Of a stretch of 64,000 nucleotides of DNA, positions 9,001 through 15,583 are shown in pieces. The stretch is from positions 34,998 to 98,997 of the forward strand of contig CAVSIC010000021.1 in assembly GCA_963727905.1 (NCBI GenBank). Reading direction: 5' to 3'. The stretch is from an uncultured Microthrixaceae bacterium. Lineage in GTDB: Bacteria > Actinomycetota > Acidimicrobiia > Acidimicrobiales > VFJN01. Each line of letters starts with the position of its first letter. The first letter of the stretch is position 1. The position numbers and the translations under genes are program-made. Below the pieces are notes generated by a model. The model searched no databases. It was given only the letters and a program-made list of their open reading frames with translations, and was not told the origin of the DNA.

Positions 9001-9494
9001 CCGACGGAAGCCGAGTCGAGGCGTTGCGCCAGGCGGCGCAGCGACTCGGCGTTGCGGGCGTGGAGGACCGGCCGCAGCACCGGCGTGAGGGCCACCCAGC
9101 CGCCCTTGGGCCGCTCGCTGAACCGGACCTCGCTGCCGGTCGCGCACGGCACCACGAGCAGCTCGACGTCCGCCCGGAACAGGCCGACGTGGACCACGAG
9201 CTCGAGGCGGTAGGGCGGGTCGGCCGCGGTGGCCTCGGTGGAGTCGTCGATCGTGGCGCCCTTCGTCGGACCGACGGAGTGGCGGAACTCGGCCCCCGGC
9301 GCCGGGAACGCCGAGTCGACCCCCCGGATGCGCTGGGCGCCGACAAGCCAGTCCGGGTACGTGGCGGGGTCCGCGATCACCGCCCACACGTCCTCCGGGG
9401 AGACCGACACCTCGACGCGGGCTTCGACGGGCGACAGGAGGCCGGGCACGCCCTGCACCTGCCCGCTGCCCGCGTGGGCCAGACGGGGTTTCAC
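8997..9494 (-). CDS. SRPBCC-family protein (polyketide cyclase/dehydrase-like)
   Basis: 165 aa. 'VEVSVSPEDVWAVIADPATYPDWL' is a typical SRPBCC N-terminal strand-helix. Its stop shares the CTAG tetranucleotide with the convergent GNAT stop. Confidence 0.7.
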   Translation of the reverse strand: MKPRLAHAGSGQVQGVPGLLSPVEARVEVSVSPEDVWAVIADPATYPDWLVGAQRIRGVDSAFPAPGAEFRHSVGPTKGATIDDSTEATAADPPYRLELVVHVGLFRADVELLVVPCATGSEVRFSERPKGGWVALTPVLRPVLHARNAESLRRLAQRLDSASVG

Positions 9495-9496
9495 GC

Positions 9497-9533
9497 GGGC
9501 GGGCCCGCCGAGCGTCTTCCGACGGGCCCGCCC
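9497..9533 (-). terminator. GC-rich hairpin between the hemerythrin and SRPBCC genes (11-bp stem, 15-nt loop, no U-tract)
   Basis: GGGCGGGCCCG (9497-9507) pairs perfectly with CGGGCCCGCCC (9523-9533). It lies 13 nt downstream of the hemerythrin stop on the minus strand. Confidence 0.4.
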
Positions 9534-9545
9534 ACGCGGCCTGAG

Positions 9546-10109
9546 CTACTGGGCCATCGCCTCCGACAGCGCCTCGGCCAGCTCTTCCTTCTTCATGTCC
9601 GACGCGCCGTCGATGCCGGCGTTCTCGGCCTCGGCGACGAGCTCCTCCTTGGACGAAGCCTTGGCGAGGGCCTCGGCCGGCATCGGCATGCCGAGGGCGA
9701 GCCGCTTGGCCATGAACGGCGTGGCCATGTCGGCCAGCACCGTCTCGCCATCCGAGCGGAGCTTCGGGAAGACGTCGTTCTCCTCCTCGTCGACGTGGTG
9801 CGTGATGCCGGCGATGAGCGCGTCGAGCGCGGCACCGAACCCGGGTTCGTCGGGGGCCAGCGACTGCACGTCCTTGAGGGCCTTCTTGGCGAGCTCGTGC
9901 TCGGTCTCGCCCTCCTGCACGGGCTCCTCGCCGGTGACGGGCTTCATCTTCGGGTACACGACCTCCTCCTCGAGCGCCATGTGCGCCAGGAGGTTGGTGG
10001 TCAGCTCCTCGATGAGAGGCGTGCGGGCGGCGCCCTCGGCCTTCTCGATCTTGTCGAAGAGCTCCTCCACCGTGCGGTGGTCGGCTTCCAGGATCCGGGT
10101 CACGTCCAT
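9546..10109 (-). CDS. Hemerythrin HHE cation-binding domain protein with a C-terminal Rho_N/SAP-like helix-extended-helix tail
   Basis: 187 aa. 'ILEADHRTVEELF', 'HMALEEEVVYP' and 'HHVDEEENDVFP' are hemerythrin His/Glu ligand motifs. The tail 'SKEELVAEAENAGIDGASDMKKEELAEAL' resembles the Rho N-terminal motif. Confidence 0.85.
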   Translation of the reverse strand: MDVTRILEADHRTVEELFDKIEKAEGAARTPLIEELTTNLLAHMALEEEVVYPKMKPVTGEEPVQEGETEHELAKKALKDVQSLAPDEPGFGAALDALIAGITHHVDEEENDVFPKLRSDGETVLADMATPFMAKRLALGMPMPAEALAKASSKEELVAEAENAGIDGASDMKKEELAEALSEAMAQ

Positions 10110-10123
10110 TGCGCGTCCTCCAT

Positions 10124-10157
10124 CGGGGTGGGTTGGGAACCGGGGTGGGTTGGGAAC
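10124..10157. repeat. Perfect 17-bp tandem direct repeat CGGGGTGGGTTGGGAAC x2
   Basis: Read directly at 10124-10140 and 10141-10157. It starts 15 nt upstream of the hemerythrin start codon (10109, minus strand), in the divergent intergenic region. Confidence 0.95.
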
Positions 10158-10231
10158 GACCCGCCGCTACCCAGGCCCGGGCTCGTCCAACCAACGGGTT
10201 TGCCGCCGCCGAAGGCGGGTAGCGGCTGCCG

Positions 10232-11281
10232 ATGACCATCCTGAGCCCGAGCGGCCCGAGCACCGCAGGACCCGAGGATCGGCCCGTCGACCTGCCTGCC
10301 GCCCGCGGCCCGGTGTCCGGTTGGCTGCTCCACCATCTCCGTCGCCCGGTGCACGACGTCGGTCGGGCGCCGATGGCGGACGACCACCCGATCACCGGCG
10401 AGGACAGCGCGCTCGCGCTGTACCTCTGCTACGAGCTCCACTACCTCGGCCTCCCGGACGTGGAGGAGAGCTGGGAGTGGGAGCCGTCGCTGCTGGCCGT
10501 GCGGGCCGGCCTCGAACACCGCTTCGAGCGGGCGCTGGTCGACCTCGTCGGCCACCCCCCGGTCGGCCTCGCCGCCGAGGACGTGGTCGACGACCTCCGG
10601 AGCCTCGCCGAGGGCGGCGACGACGGGCCTTCGCTCTCCGCCCACCTCGAGGCGGCCGGCACCCTGACCGAAGCCCGCGAGCTGGCGGTCCACCGCTCCG
10701 CCTACCAGCTCAAGGAGGCCGATCCACACACCTGGGGGCTCCCCCGCCTGACCGGCCGGGCCAAGGCCGGGATGCTCGAGATCCAGCGCGGCGAGTACGG
10801 CGACGGAGATCCGAACGAGGTCCACGCCACGCTGTTCGCCCGGACGATGCGGGCCCTCGGGCTCGACGCCCGCTACGGGGCGCTCGTCGACCAGGTGCCG
10901 GCCATCTCCCTGAGCACGTGCAACCTCATCTCGCTCTTCGGCCTGCACCGCCGCTGGCGGGGCGCGCTCGTCGGCCACCTCGCGCTGTTCGAGATGTGCT
11001 CGGTGACGCCCATGAGCCGCTACCAGCGCGGCCTCGAGCGCCTCGGCCTCGACGAGGCGGCCACCCGCTTCTACGCGGCGCACGTCATCGCCGACGAGCA
11101 CCACCAGGTGGTGGCCTTGCGCGACATGGTCCGCCCACTCGTGGAGGACGAGCCGTTCCTCAGCGGCGAGGTGGTGTTCGGAGCGCGGGCCCTGCAGGCG
11201 GTCGAGTCGTTGTTCGCCGAGCACGTGCTGGGCGCCTGGGAGCGGGGCGAGACCTCGCTGCGCTCGGGCGACCTCGGCTAG
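10232..11281 (+). CDS. Iron-containing redox enzyme family protein (heme-oxygenase-like fold, Haem_oxygenas_2 type)
   Basis: 349 aa. 'ALALYLCYELHYLG', 'HRSAYQLKEADPHTW' and 'EIQRGEYGDGDPNEVHATLFARTM...FEMCSVTPMSRY...HVIADEHH' match the helical di-iron/heme-oxygenase-like family as I recognise it. Confidence 0.75.
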   Translation: MTILSPSGPSTAGPEDRPVDLPAARGPVSGWLLHHLRRPVHDVGRAPMADDHPITGEDSALALYLCYELHYLGLPDVEESWEWEPSLLAVRAGLEHRFERALVDLVGHPPVGLAAEDVVDDLRSLAEGGDDGPSLSAHLEAAGTLTEARELAVHRSAYQLKEADPHTWGLPRLTGRAKAGMLEIQRGEYGDGDPNEVHATLFARTMRALGLDARYGALVDQVPAISLSTCNLISLFGLHRRWRGALVGHLALFEMCSVTPMSRYQRGLERLGLDEAATRFYAAHVIADEHHQVVALRDMVRPLVEDEPFLSGEVVFGARALQAVESLFAEHVLGAWERGETSLRSGDLG

Positions 11282-11310
11282 CGACCCGCCGAGGCGGGTA
11301 CGCCCCGACC

Positions 11311-12192
11311 ATGCCCCGCCCCGTCTGGACCGGTTCGCTCTCCTTCGGCCTGGTCAACGTCCCCGTGAAGGCGTTCACCGCCACGCGGGACCACTCCGTC
11401 CACTTCCACCAGCTGGAGAAGAAGACCGGCGCCCGCATCCGCAACCAGCGGGTGTCCGACAAGACCGGCAAGCAGGTCGACGCCGACGACATCGAGATGG
11501 GCTACGAGCTGCGCAAGGGCCGCTACGTCACCTTCGAGAAGGACGAGCTCGAGGAGCTCAAGCCGGAGTCGACCCGAGCGGTCGAGGTCACCGACTTCGT
11601 GGCGCTGGAGGACATCGACCCGATGTTCTACGACCGCACCTACTGGCTGGCCCCCGCCGACGACCACGCCAAGGAGGCGTACCAGCTCCTCCACGCGGCG
11701 ATGGTCGAGCGCGGCCGCGTGGGCATCGGCACGGTGGTGATGCGCAACAACCAGTACCTCACCGCCATCCGACCCATCGACAAGGCGCTCGCCATGTCGA
11801 CGATGCGCTTCGCCGACGAGATCGTCGACCGCAGCGACATCGACGGGCTCCCCACCCGCCGCACCAAGCCCAGCCCCAAGGCGTTGCAGCTGGCCACGCA
11901 GATCGTCGACGCGCTGTCGAGCGAGTGGAACCCCGAGCAGTACCACGACACCTACACCGAGGAGCTCGAGGACATCATCGCCAAGAAGGACAAGGGCAAG
12001 GCCGACGTGGTGGAGGAGTCGGGCACCACCGAGCCCCGTGCCGACGTCGGCGACCTGATGGCCGCCCTCGAGGCCAGCATCTCGAAGTCGGGGCGCAAGG
12101 GCTCCTCCCGGCGCTCGTCCCGGCCGGCCACCAAGACGGGCACCGCATCCGGCACGACCACCAAGCGCAAGGCCCGCGCCAAGGCCGGCTGA
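11311..12192 (+). CDS. ku: Ku protein (non-homologous end joining)
   Basis: 293 aa starting at ATG 11311, inside the spurious track ORF 9229..12192. 'MPRPVWTGSLSFGLVNVPVKAFTATRDHSVHFHQL...GYELRKGRYVTFEKDELE...MFYDRTYWLAP' is the canonical bacterial Ku core. The tail is Lys/Arg-rich. Confidence 0.92.
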   Translation: MPRPVWTGSLSFGLVNVPVKAFTATRDHSVHFHQLEKKTGARIRNQRVSDKTGKQVDADDIEMGYELRKGRYVTFEKDELEELKPESTRAVEVTDFVALEDIDPMFYDRTYWLAPADDHAKEAYQLLHAAMVERGRVGIGTVVMRNNQYLTAIRPIDKALAMSTMRFADEIVDRSDIDGLPTRRTKPSPKALQLATQIVDALSSEWNPEQYHDTYTEELEDIIAKKDKGKADVVEESGTTEPRADVGDLMAALEASISKSGRKGSSRRSSRPATKTGTASGTTTKRKARAKAG

Positions 12193-13597: not shown

Positions 13598-13632
13598 TTG
13601 CCAGATGGTATCCATTCGGATACCATCTGCCC
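13598..13632 (+). promoter_or_regulatory. Sigma70-like promoter (-35 TTGCCA 13598-13603, 17-bp spacer, -10 TACCAT 13621-13626) overlapped by a perfect 12-4-12 inverted repeat (13602-13629); the transcript is predicted to be leaderless
   Basis: CAGATGGTATCC attc GGATACCATCTG read directly. The ATG at 13633 lies 6 nt after the -10 hexamer and has no Shine-Dalgarno sequence. Confidence 0.6.
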
Positions 13633-13953
13633 ATGACCGCCGCCCAGGCCCTCAAGGAGATCCGCCGCCGCTCGGGGCTGGGCCTCCGGGAGCTGGCGCG
13701 ACGCGGGGGCACCTCGCACGCGACCCTCCACGCCTACGAGTCGGGCGCCAAGGAGCCGCGCCTCGACACGGTGGCCCGACTGGCCGACGCCGCCGGCTTC
13801 ACCCTCGAGGTCAACCTCGCCCCTCGCCCCGACGCTGGGGCCGCTCGGGCGGACAAGGGTCGGGAGCTGGCCGAGGCCCTCGAGCTGGCCGCCGCGTTCC
13901 CCGCCCGCCACCACGCCCGCCTGCGGGCGCCCATCTTCGGCGCGGTCACCTGA
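13633..13953 (+). CDS. XRE-family helix-turn-helix regulator (antitoxin-like)
   Basis: 106 aa. 'LKEIRRRSGLGLRELARRGGTSHATLHAYESGAKEPRLDTVARLADAAG' is a classic HTH_XRE (HTH_3) domain. The C-terminal 45 aa are unassigned. Confidence 0.8.
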   Translation: MTAAQALKEIRRRSGLGLRELARRGGTSHATLHAYESGAKEPRLDTVARLADAAGFTLEVNLAPRPDAGAARADKGRELAEALELAAAFPARHHARLRAPIFGAVT

Positions 13954-13976
13954 CGCTCATCGGGAAGATCCTCGCG

Positions 13977-14480
13977 GTGCACCACGCGCTGCGCGAAGCC
14001 GGGACCCCCCACGCGTTCGGCGGGGCACTCGCCCTCGCGTGGTGCACCCAGCAGGCCCGAGGCACGATCGACATCGACGTCAACGTGTTCGTCGGTGTGG
14101 ACCAGGCCGGCGCGGTGCTCGCCGCCCTGCCCGACGGCGTGGTGTGGGATGACGCCGACCGGGCCCAGCTCGAGCGCGACGGCCAGATCCGGCTCTGGTG
14201 GGACCGGACCCCCGTCGACGTGTTCCTCAACACGACGGACTTCCACGCAGGTGCCGCGTCCCGGGCGCGGCTCGAGCCGTTCGAGGGCGAGGACGTCCCG
14301 TTCCTCGCCTGCCGGGACCTCGCCGTGTTCAAGGCCTTCTTCAACCGGACCAAGGACTGGGCGGACCTCGAGGCGATGGCCGAGGTCGGGGCACTCGACG
14401 TGGAGGCCGTCCTCGGCGTGCTCGCCCGCTACCTCGGCTCCGACGACGAGCGCCTCGACCGGCTCCGCTCCCTCACCTGA
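13977..14480 (+). CDS. Minimal nucleotidyltransferase-fold protein (toxin-like partner of the XRE gene)
   Basis: 'AFGGALALAWCTQQARGTIDIDVNVFV' fits the pol-beta nucleotidyltransferase signature G[GS]-x(9-13)-D-x-[DE]. The start is uncertain: GTG 13977, or CTG 13950 overlapping the XRE stop. Confidence 0.55.
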   Translation: MHHALREAGTPHAFGGALALAWCTQQARGTIDIDVNVFVGVDQAGAVLAALPDGVVWDDADRAQLERDGQIRLWWDRTPVDVFLNTTDFHAGAASRARLEPFEGEDVPFLACRDLAVFKAFFNRTKDWADLEAMAEVGALDVEAVLGVLARYLGSDDERLDRLRSLT

Positions 14481-14530: not shown

Positions 14531-15130
14531 ATGACCACCGCACCGGAAGCGCTCATCCGCGACCTCGAGCACGAAGATGCCCTCGACGGACCGCAGCAGG
14601 TGATCGGGCGGATCCGCGACGCCCTCCCCGACCCCGTTCGGGAGGAGCTCGAGGGCCAGCGGCTCGGCCATCGGCTCCACCCGCTGTTCACGGACCTGCC
14701 GATCGGGTTCTGGACCAGCGCCTTCTGCATCGACCTCGTCGCCCCGCGCCGTGGCGCCACGGCCGCCCGTCGGTTCGTCGGCCTGGGCGTCCTCAGCGCC
14801 CTGCCCGCCGTGGCCACCGGCGTGGCCGACTTCGGCTACCTCTCGCCGGGCAAGCGGCGGGTCGCGGTGGTGCACGTCGCGGCCAACGCCACCGCCACGG
14901 CGACGTACGGCCTGTCGTACCTGGCTCGGCGCCGGGGCCACCTCGCCCGCGGCATCGTGCTCGGGATGGTGGGGGCCGGGCTCGCGACCGCCGGCGGGTT
15001 CCTGGGCGGCCACCTCGCCTTCGGCCACGACAGCCTCGGCGACGGGGCCGACGCCCCGGCGCCGGAGTCGGCCGGCGTGAGCGTGGCGACCGATCCCGCC
15101 AACGGCCACGCGGTGCCGCTGCGCGTCTGA
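14531..15130 (+). CDS. DUF2231-like integral membrane protein
   Basis: 199 aa. 'HPLFTDLPIGFWTSAFCIDL' followed by three further hydrophobic helices, matching the DUF2231 pattern as I recall it. Confidence 0.65.
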   Translation: MTTAPEALIRDLEHEDALDGPQQVIGRIRDALPDPVREELEGQRLGHRLHPLFTDLPIGFWTSAFCIDLVAPRRGATAARRFVGLGVLSALPAVATGVADFGYLSPGKRRVAVVHVAANATATATYGLSYLARRRGHLARGIVLGMVGAGLATAGGFLGGHLAFGHDSLGDGADAPAPESAGVSVATDPANGHAVPLRV

Positions 15131-15178: not shown

Positions 15179-15583
15179 GTGATCGAGGCGGCGGGCGGAG
15201 TGGTCTGGCGGACGGACGACGCGGGACGGCCCGTGCTGCTCCTCGTCCACCGGCCGCACTACGACGACTGGTCGCTGCCGAAGGGCAAGCTCGACGCGGG
15301 TGAGTCGGTCGAGGACGCCGCGCTGCGCGAGGTCCTCGAGGAGACCGGGTTGGCCTGCCGGCTCGGCCGCGAGGCGGCCGAGGTCCGCTACGTGGACCGC
15401 AACGGCAACCGCAAGCGCGTGCGCTACTGGCACATGGAGCTGGTGGAGCCCTTGGCCCTGGCGTTCACGCCCAACGACGAGGTGGACGAGCTGCGCTGGC
15501 TCCCCCCCGACGGGGCCGCCGCCCTCCTCAGCTACGAGCGCGACGTGGCCGTGGTCCGGGAGCTGGAGCGACCCTCGGGCTAG
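15179..15583 (+). CDS. NUDIX hydrolase
   Basis: 134 aa with the Nudix box 'GKLDAGESVEDAALREVLEETGL' (GX5EX7REUXEEXGU). Confidence 0.88.
   Translation: MIEAAGGVVWRTDDAGRPVLLLVHRPHYDDWSLPKGKLDAGESVEDAALREVLEETGLACRLGREAAEVRYVDRNGNRKRVRYWHMELVEPLALAFTPNDEVDELRWLPPDGAAALLSYERDVAVVRELERPSG

Follow-up and report, generated by a model that had tools for sequence, protein, structure and literature searches.

Introduction

Nucleotidyltransferase (NTase) toxins of the MenT/AbiEii type block translation by extending the 3' ends of tRNAs and are silenced by an autophosphorylation that their antitoxins induce, and to our knowledge the antitoxins known for these enzymes so far are COG5340 proteins, COG4861 proteins and the rare MenA1. 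In the HipB, HigA and MqsA-like systems the operator overlaps the module's own promoter, and the antitoxin gene comes first and is overlapped by the toxin gene. HEPN-MNT systems combine a HEPN RNase as the toxin with an NTase that serves as the antitoxin by AMPylating it. Here we describe a locus at positions 13598-14480 of a 64,000-nt stretch of DNA (contig CAVSIC010000021.1, positions 34,998-98,997; hereafter the window, meaning this whole stretch), in which a gene for an XRE-family protein is followed by one for a small NTase. Our analysis suggests, with a probability that we put at roughly two in three, that both genes form a toxin-antitoxin module of the MenAT/AbiE (DUF1814 NTase) superfamily with a previously undescribed type of antitoxin. 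An autoregulated XRE antitoxin combined with an AbiE-like NTase had been the proposal of the original prediction, made from the letters of the DNA, and it is supported by the synteny of the pair, the operator, the active site and the homology to MenT1.

The characterised relatives extend the 3'-CCA ends of tRNAs and arrest translation (PMC7450476; PMC10435456). Autophosphorylation triggered by the antitoxin occurs at T39 of MenT1, S78 of MenT3 and T65 of AbiEii, and these phosphoacceptors are dispensable for catalysis and toxicity (PMC11375011; bioRxiv 10.64898/2026.01.19.700257). The active site of MenT1 has been defined by T39, D41, K137 and D152; the toxin becomes harmless upon substitution D41A, K137A or D152A but stays toxic with T39A (PMC10435456).

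A MenT1-like nucleotidyltransferase

The NTase gene of the window (13950-14480, forward strand) encodes 176 residues and was recognised as MenT1-like, within the AbiEii/DUF1814 superfamily, from homologue alignment, structure and profile. Its AlphaFold2 (AF2) model, with a predicted local distance difference test score (pLDDT) of 95.4 and a predicted template modelling score (pTM) of 0.89, consists of a beta-sheet lobe and four C-terminal helices (residues 121-131, 134-145, 151-162 and 167-173), and the same architecture has been described for MenT1 (PMC10435456). Structure prediction followed by a Foldseek search had been suggested in the original prediction as a check, and the best match in the PDB proved to be MenT1/MenAT1 (Rv0078A; 8an5, 8an4 and 8rr5) with template modelling (TM) scores of 0.72-0.75 and E values down to 6e-8, ranking above JHP933, ANT(2'')-Ia, LnuA, CCA-adding enzymes and MenT3/TglT. 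A structure search of BFVD returned generic NTase folds alone (best TMq 0.56). A profile of 67 family representatives with 31-57% identity to the window NTase, which also make up the broad alignment referred to below, matched MenT1 with an E value of 2.2e-11 over residues 8-172, nearly the full length, and hhalign aligned the NTase family with MenT1 at a probability of 94.8%. Likewise, the Pfam family AbiEii (PF08843) was matched by 52 of the 67 representatives at E <= 0.01; its gathering cut-off of 22.5 bits was reached by P0252 (26.2 bits) and P0149 (22.5 bits), MenT1 itself scoring 39 bits, and some distant members are named AbiEii/AbiGii toxin family by NCBI.

The active site is intact. 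Motifs I and II (G24-G25 ... R37-G-T39-I-D41-I-D43; 14019-14078, forward strand) are invariant and align to FTRDVD of MenT1, such that T39 falls on the MenT1 phosphoacceptor and D41 and D43 represent the metal-binding carboxylates; the spacing between the glycines and the aspartates is GG-x15-DID and not GG-x11-DID as had been read originally. The third catalytic carboxylate, D90, is located in a PVDVF strand (14217-14219, forward strand), is invariant as well and aligns to VVDLLF of MenT1, and a C-lobe motif, K128-x4-R133-x2-D136-W-x-D139 (14331-14366, forward strand), is apparent from the broad alignment. In this alignment G25, R37, T39, D41, D43, D90, F92 and R133 are invariant, while K128, D136, W137 and D139 are conserved in at least 90% of the sequences. 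Conservation of the catalytic aspartates was a point on which the original prediction had been staked, and D41, D43 and D90 are indeed found in every one of the 67 representatives. Moreover, in both the profile and the hhalign alignments T39, D41, K137 and D152 of MenT1 correspond to T39, D41, K128 and D139 of the window protein. Based on the fold match of the model, the family profile and the aligned conserved active site, the predicted NTase is an intact, divergent and short MenT1-like member of the DUF1814/AbiEii group. The original prediction had considered the size of the proteins to differ from that of known systems; since the closest relative is the short MenT1, this is not the case. 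The comparison with MNT-type systems does not apply either. HEPN-MNT pairs resemble the locus in having a small pol-beta-type NTase in a two-gene cassette, but there is no HEPN gene here, neither neighbour of the NTase gene carries a HEPN domain, and the NTase itself is of the MenT and not of the MNT kind.

The Foldseek ranking also brings into play an XRE-repressed NTase that modifies antibiotics, in the manner of the resistance enzymes ANT(2'')-Ia and Lnu(A). ANT(2'')-Ia (TM 0.59-0.67) and LnuA (TM 0.56) are of similar size, and six of the 67 members weakly match Pfam Aminoglyc_resit. However, the profile search of the PDB recovered MenT1 (E 2e-11), with ANT and Lnu chains missing from its results up to an E value of 10, and the MenT-aligned signatures [ST]-x-D-x-D and K...R..D..D are conserved. 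The XRE protein, furthermore, has no ligand-binding domain and carries instead the NTase-linked tail described below, and the translational coupling and the self-operator are typical of toxin-antitoxin operons, which makes such an enzyme a most improbable explanation.

A domain fusion was observed in one relative of the NTase. On a 1.1-Mb contig of GCA_028285415.1, a 344-residue protein (P0122; L081:5001-6035) combines a TIR_2 domain (E 2e-28) with a full family NTase; it lacks both the tail motif and an XRE gene next to it.

A tail that accompanies the enzyme

The first gene of the pair (13633-13953, forward strand) encodes a 106-residue XRE-family protein that would act as antitoxin and repressor. 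In Pfam it matches HTH_31 (E 3e-11) and HTH_3 (E 7e-10) and also HTH_19 and HTH_26, and its helix-turn-helix (HTH), residues ~1-58 (13633-13806), is of the standard XRE type and resembles those of ClgR, HipB, DdrO and HigA. The winged HTH of AbiEi/COG5340 was not among the Pfam matches, which within the 106 residues comprise only these four families. The extra C-terminal tail noted in the original prediction is real and conserved. It comprises residues ~70-106 (13840-13950, forward strand), was delimited by conservation and by the AF2 model of a fused chain, in which a helix (residues 70-88) is followed by an extended segment, and has the motif ELxxxLxLAxxFPARH...PxFG. In the XRE alignment the tail is as conserved as the HTH, with conserved positions at G76, E78, L79, L83, L85, A86, F89, P90, A91, R92, H93, L97, P100 and F102, of which E78, L79, L83, L85, A86, F89, P90, H93 and F102 are invariant. 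No Pfam family covers the tail, and searches of the PDB sequences with the XRE protein, the tail and a tail profile gave no match except through the HTH, MenA1 (8an5) remaining unmatched.

For comparisons between loci we used the best 80 of at least 506 species-level genomes with the NTase, these 80 being nearly all metagenome-assembled genomes (MAGs) of Acidimicrobiia; depending on the feature the denominators are 80 (pairing), 79 (operator), 71 (junction) and 69 (start-codon distance). The tail accompanies the NTase in all 80 loci. The form with XRE domain and tail occurs in Acidimicrobiia and also in L082 and L089. In a Solirubrobacterales MAG (L088:2004-2504, 166 residues) and a Chloroflexi MAG (L087:257-571, 104 residues) the partner has no XRE HTH; both of these proteins, for which no Pfam match is on record, end in a tail-like L..LL.L...P...FP.L and overlap the NTase start. 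XRE domain, tail and NTase form single polypeptides in P0149, which was found on two independent contigs (L083:3001-3858 and L084:80-937), in P0169 (L085:3001-3900, located between metK and priA), and in P0216, P0246 and P0487, and the palindromes upstream of the L083, L084 and L085 fusions have the altered half-site ATATC-N6-GATAT or GAGAT. The tail is joined to the NTase in the absence of any HTH in P0239, P0263 and P0270. In L079 (3838-4003) an in-frame deletion of the HTH has left a 55-residue tail-only open reading frame (ORF), with the operator, promoter and NTase intact and an ATGA overlap between the genes, and in L045 (3144-4004) the tail is fused in frame to the end of an ORF that, as judged by eye, is metallophosphoesterase-like, again with an ATGA overlap with an intact NTase. 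One of these two loci, L079 and L045, lies on a complete Acidimicrobiales chromosome.

Since the tail survives deletion, replacement and fusion of the HTH, it is likely the module that binds and neutralises the NTase. If an active enzyme can be tolerated only together with the tail, such constant presence beside the NTase in 80 loci would follow, and the retention of the tail is the strongest of the indirect arguments that these sequence comparisons provide for a toxin-antitoxin relationship.

Predicted operon control and translation starts

Upstream of the XRE gene, the promoter TTGCCA-17 nt-TACCAT proposed in the original prediction was recovered by a promoter scan, with the -35-like hexamer TTGCCA at 13598-13603 and the -10 hexamer TACCAT at 13621-13626 (both forward strand). 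It is the single sigma-70-like match between 13300 and 15800, where shuffled sequences lead to an expectation of 0.1; the -35 hexamer is weakly conserved among relatives. The perfect 12-4-12 palindrome that had been described at the promoter was also found, at 13602-13629, with fully (100%) complementary arms (CAGATGGTATCC at 13602-13613 and GGATACCATCTG at 13618-13629) separated by a 4-nt spacer. The palindrome covers the -10, which sits within the right operator half-site, and abuts the -35, and thus represents a candidate self-operator. What is shared throughout the family is a 7-6-7 core, TGGTATC-N6-GATACCA, located at 13606-13625 of the window, while the outer CAGA/TCTG bases of the palindrome are specific to the window and its lineage. 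Since the 14 specified bases of this core are exact in 57 loci and carry at most two mismatches in 75 of 79, the operator is not a chance occurrence. Divergent branches have other half-sites in the same layout (TGTTATC-N6-GATAACA in L082, ATATC-N6-GATAT in L083), and such co-variation of half-sites with divergent XRE proteins would be expected if the palindrome is the site that the XRE protein recognises. A single copy of the motif is present in the 64-kb window, which suits autoregulation rather than control of a regulon. The XRE protein presumably binds the palindrome and represses its own operon.

The ATG of the XRE gene at 13633 starts 6 nt (CTGCCC) past the -10 and has no Shine-Dalgarno sequence, as stated in the original prediction, and this leaderless layout is conserved: the start codon follows ...GATACCA at a distance of 7-8 nt in 56 of 69 loci, with GATACCAT conserved. 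From this distance GATACCAT is taken to be the -10, and a leaderless mRNA is predicted. In the other 13 loci, which are mostly Ilumatobacteraceae-like according to the locus list, the palindrome is positioned ~10 nt further upstream and a separate TAnnnT -10 is present.

For the NTase gene, which had been read as overlapping or abutting the XRE stop codon, the homologues favour the overlap. They are 176-180 residues long and in the alignment begin with either M or V where the window has CTG 13950, as in the close relatives P0003 (M) and P0001 (V); NTGA overlaps (ATGA, GTGA, TTGA) are the common junction and were found in ~45 of 71 loci. Because the homologues begin at this position, the NTase most likely starts at CTG 13950, with a CTGA overlap with the XRE stop, and GTG 13977 would be a fallback. 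The CTG copy of the window may be weakly expressed, or may use termination-reinitiation or GTG 13977. Near its 5' end the NTase gene contains a 13-nt perfect inverted repeat (GGTGCACCACGCG and CGCGTGGTGCACC, at 13976-13988 and 14036-14048, 47 nt apart) that spans the alternative GTG. The repeat was rejected as a conserved RNA element, since relatives retain only 6-11 of the 13 pairs, mostly owing to conserved W-C-T and H codons, and in its perfect form it appears to be specific to the window.

Distribution of the gene pair and its alternatives

An XRE-type gene or its C-terminal tail is present directly upstream of the NTase on the same strand in every one of the 80 loci, so that the syntenic conservation on which the original prediction also depended is complete, while the flanking ORFs appear to be metabolic and housekeeping genes of varied, unrelated kinds. 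Since the pair is constant and the flanks vary, the unit is a two-gene cassette. Its genes are adjacent, co-oriented, overlapping or abutting, and paired independently of their flanks, and hence have a type II-like architecture. Beyond these loci the NTase has a large number of relatives, in at least 6,401 clusters at 90% identity and, with 50% clustering, in 1,826 clusters (E <= 1e-3).

Several of our observations speak against a toxin-antitoxin module. First, the direct scans were nearly blank, and the MenT1 link emerged just from the structure and the broader profile: the window NTase gave no match to PF08843 in Pfam (E <= 0.01), where only a sub-threshold DUF6036 appeared, no match in PADLOC (E <= 0.1) or NCBIfam, and none among PDB sequences, also when a close-homologue profile was used. 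Second, over the 80 loci the NTase is 62-79% identical (median 67%) compared with a median of 53% for the XRE protein, and a conservation of this degree is unusually high for a toxin. The cassette has a host-like guanine-plus-cytosine (GC) content and sits amid housekeeping and core genes, and no homologue of the NTase was found in PLSDB plasmids (tblastn) or in IMG/VR viral contigs (pattern scan and tblastn). Taken together, the conservation, the GC content and the lack of plasmid or viral copies in these collections would fit a vertical, physiological role as well as a selfish module. Moreover, fusions of XRE protein and NTase are atypical of classical type II systems with a labile, degraded antitoxin; the NTase is acidic, with a net charge of about -11 by residue count, and not obviously suited to binding tRNA; and the start codon of the window NTase is CTG, with an uncertain expression level.

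These features invite, as the main rival, an explanation in which the NTase is a domesticated regulatory enzyme, i.e. a vertically inherited RNA or tRNA 3'-end (or protein) NTase that tunes growth or translation to a signal, with the XRE protein as its dedicated regulator and allosteric partner. An NTase more conserved than its XRE partner, its presence in at least 506 species-level genomes, the host-like GC content, the lack of any tRNA gene or mobile-element signal near the cassette, the absence from the PLSDB and IMG/VR collections searched, core-gene neighbours such as metK and priA in L085 and the occurrence of stable single-chain fusions would all agree with such a role. We nevertheless consider it unlikely, since the flanks differ by lineage and the cassette has therefore moved, a second copy is present in at least one MAG (L027 and L048), and the tail is never lost beside an intact NTase in the 80 loci, even where the HTH is deleted, which resembles the dependence on an antitoxin. 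In addition, all of the nearest relatives that have been characterised are toxins that arrest growth (PMC10435456; PMC7450476). A more specific version would be a largely vertical growth switch of Acidimicrobiia, in which a MenT1-type tRNA 3'-end NTase is held in a standing complex by a portable neutralising tail peptide of a new type and is switched by autophosphorylation of T39. The tail would then be a part that can be joined with an XRE repressor, other N-terminal domains or the enzyme itself. If true, this would explain the housekeeping-like conservation of the NTase, and we regard it as an unlikely arrangement as well.

The same biochemistry might also serve abortive infection, with the toxin being released upon phage infection as in the lactococcal and streptococcal AbiE systems. 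The family lies within the AbiEii superfamily, its relative P0122 is fused to a TIR domain (TIR_2, E 2e-28), a domain familiar from immune systems, and in PADLOC the XRE protein resembles CapH- and RmrA-type regulators, albeit through its HTH and among generic HTH regulators only. However, the NTase itself has no PADLOC match, the neighbours are metabolic genes and not defence islands, there is no association with mobile elements in PLSDB or IMG/VR, and the conservation is very high, whereas defence genes are expected to turn over fast. A defence function is thus quite unlikely. The toxin-antitoxin reading remains the one that we prefer.

With respect to the genes around the cassette, DUF2231 (14531-15130) and NUDIX (15179-15583) genes do follow downstream on the same strand, as had been noted in the original prediction, but their association with the module does not hold, as neither occurs in any of the 80 related loci and both recur as neighbours only in the close relative L086, and they were rejected as parts of it. 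Similarly, the palindrome does face a divergent nitroreductase gene in the window, but nitroreductase neighbours are confined to close relatives; a nitroreductase or cupin gene occurs in only three of the 80 loci, in two of these not adjacent to the cassette, and neither was retained as a third component. The nitroreductase (reverse strand) probably starts at GTG 13580, which gives a protein of 218 residues as in L086:2974-3684. Because this GTG is only 22 nt from the palindrome, the XRE operator might touch the nitroreductase promoter in the lineage of the window, and L086, a close relative, is the only other locus with the nitroreductase-facing arrangement. L086 alone shares the neighbourhood of the window: one flank has haem-oxygenase-like, Ku, cupin and nitroreductase genes, and the other NUDIX and acyl-CoA dehydrogenase genes. 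In the window, haem-oxygenase-like and Ku-like genes were read by eye from the translations upstream of the cassette (10232-12192), while the Pfam calls Haem_oxygenas_2 and Ku apply to the syntenic genes of L086; a 987-residue ORF (9229-12192) is a high-GC artefact, and just its C-terminal part is Ku-like. The MAG with two cassettes, CAVUMI01 (MFD04212.bin.2.169), has the same half-sites in both L027 and L048, and cross-regulation between them is possible.

Discussion

If the locus is a toxin-antitoxin module, a sigma-70-type promoter would give rise to a leaderless bicistronic mRNA, and the XRE protein, probably as a dimer, would bind TGGTATC-N6-GATACCA and repress its own operon, alone or in complex. 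Translation of the NTase would be coupled to that of the XRE gene by the NTGA stop/start overlap, and the XRE tail, with its helix and the FPARH...PxFG segment, would bind the NTase and hold it inactive. Free NTase, by analogy with MenT1, MenT3 and AbiEii, may extend the 3'-CCA ends of tRNAs with nucleotides and thereby block aminoacylation and growth, and the antitoxin may neutralise it by occlusion combined with an induced autophosphorylation of T39. From these relatives we infer the toxicity of the NTase, its tRNA target, the autophosphorylation of T39 and the neutralisation by the tail. The invariance of T39 in the family would be consistent with a role as regulatory phosphoacceptor.

Among the described systems MenAT1 of Mycobacterium tuberculosis (Rv0078B-Rv0078A) appears to be closest. 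The toxins are similar in length (176 residues here compared with 196 in the MenT1 PDB chain), bi-lobed fold (TM 0.73) and aligned active site, the antitoxin gene lies upstream in both, and the 55-residue tail-only ORF of L079, which has no DNA-binding domain, recalls the 68-residue MenA1 (PMC10435456). In contrast, an XRE HTH is present here and absent from MenA1, the identity between the toxins is only ~20%, and the MenA1 family comprises 21 genes (PMC10435456) while the pair described here occurs in at least 506 species. As there is no MenA1 homologue, the locus is not MenAT1. The AbiE, MenAT3 and MenAT4 systems (COG5340-DUF1814) share with it the NTase superfamily PF08843, a DNA-binding autoregulatory antitoxin (predicted here) with a separate C-terminal antitoxicity region (proposed here), and a conserved Ser/Thr phosphoacceptor two residues before the first catalytic Asp. 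However, their toxins are ~290 residues long and contain extra elements, Foldseek gave TM scores of only 0.43-0.54 to MenT3/TglT, and their antitoxins are ~200-residue COG5340 winged-HTH proteins instead of a 106-residue XRE protein with a short tail. In the absence of a COG5340 antitoxin the locus is not a classical AbiE or MenAT3/4 system. The XRE-type antitoxins of type II systems (HipB, HigA and MqsA-like) share the XRE HTH, as seen from the HipB and HigA matches, but are paired with kinases or RNases and not with NTases, and the tail motif found here has no Pfam or PDB-sequence match. A keyword search revealed no paper mentioning DUF6036 in the literature collection covered and, as far as titles, abstracts and one text check indicate, apparently no description of an XRE-MenT/AbiEii pair.

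As a toxin-antitoxin module, the locus represents an uncharacterised variant of a known family with a wide distribution in Acidimicrobiia, and its new part is the XRE-plus-tail class of antitoxin for short MenT toxins. It would add to the antitoxins of this superfamily a very common type of partner, an XRE repressor with a portable tail of ~40 residues, paired with MenT toxins of the shortest class, in an actinobacterial class that is large and almost entirely uncultured. The natural variants, in which the tail stands alone, is fused to the toxin or is attached to other domains, map the functional parts of the antitoxin and would guide work on inhibition by minimal peptides. The conserved leaderless promoter with its internal operator would provide a clean model of regulation for high-GC actinobacteria. 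Should the enzyme instead have been domesticated, it would illustrate how an enzyme of toxin-antitoxin origin can be taken into service for routine growth control.

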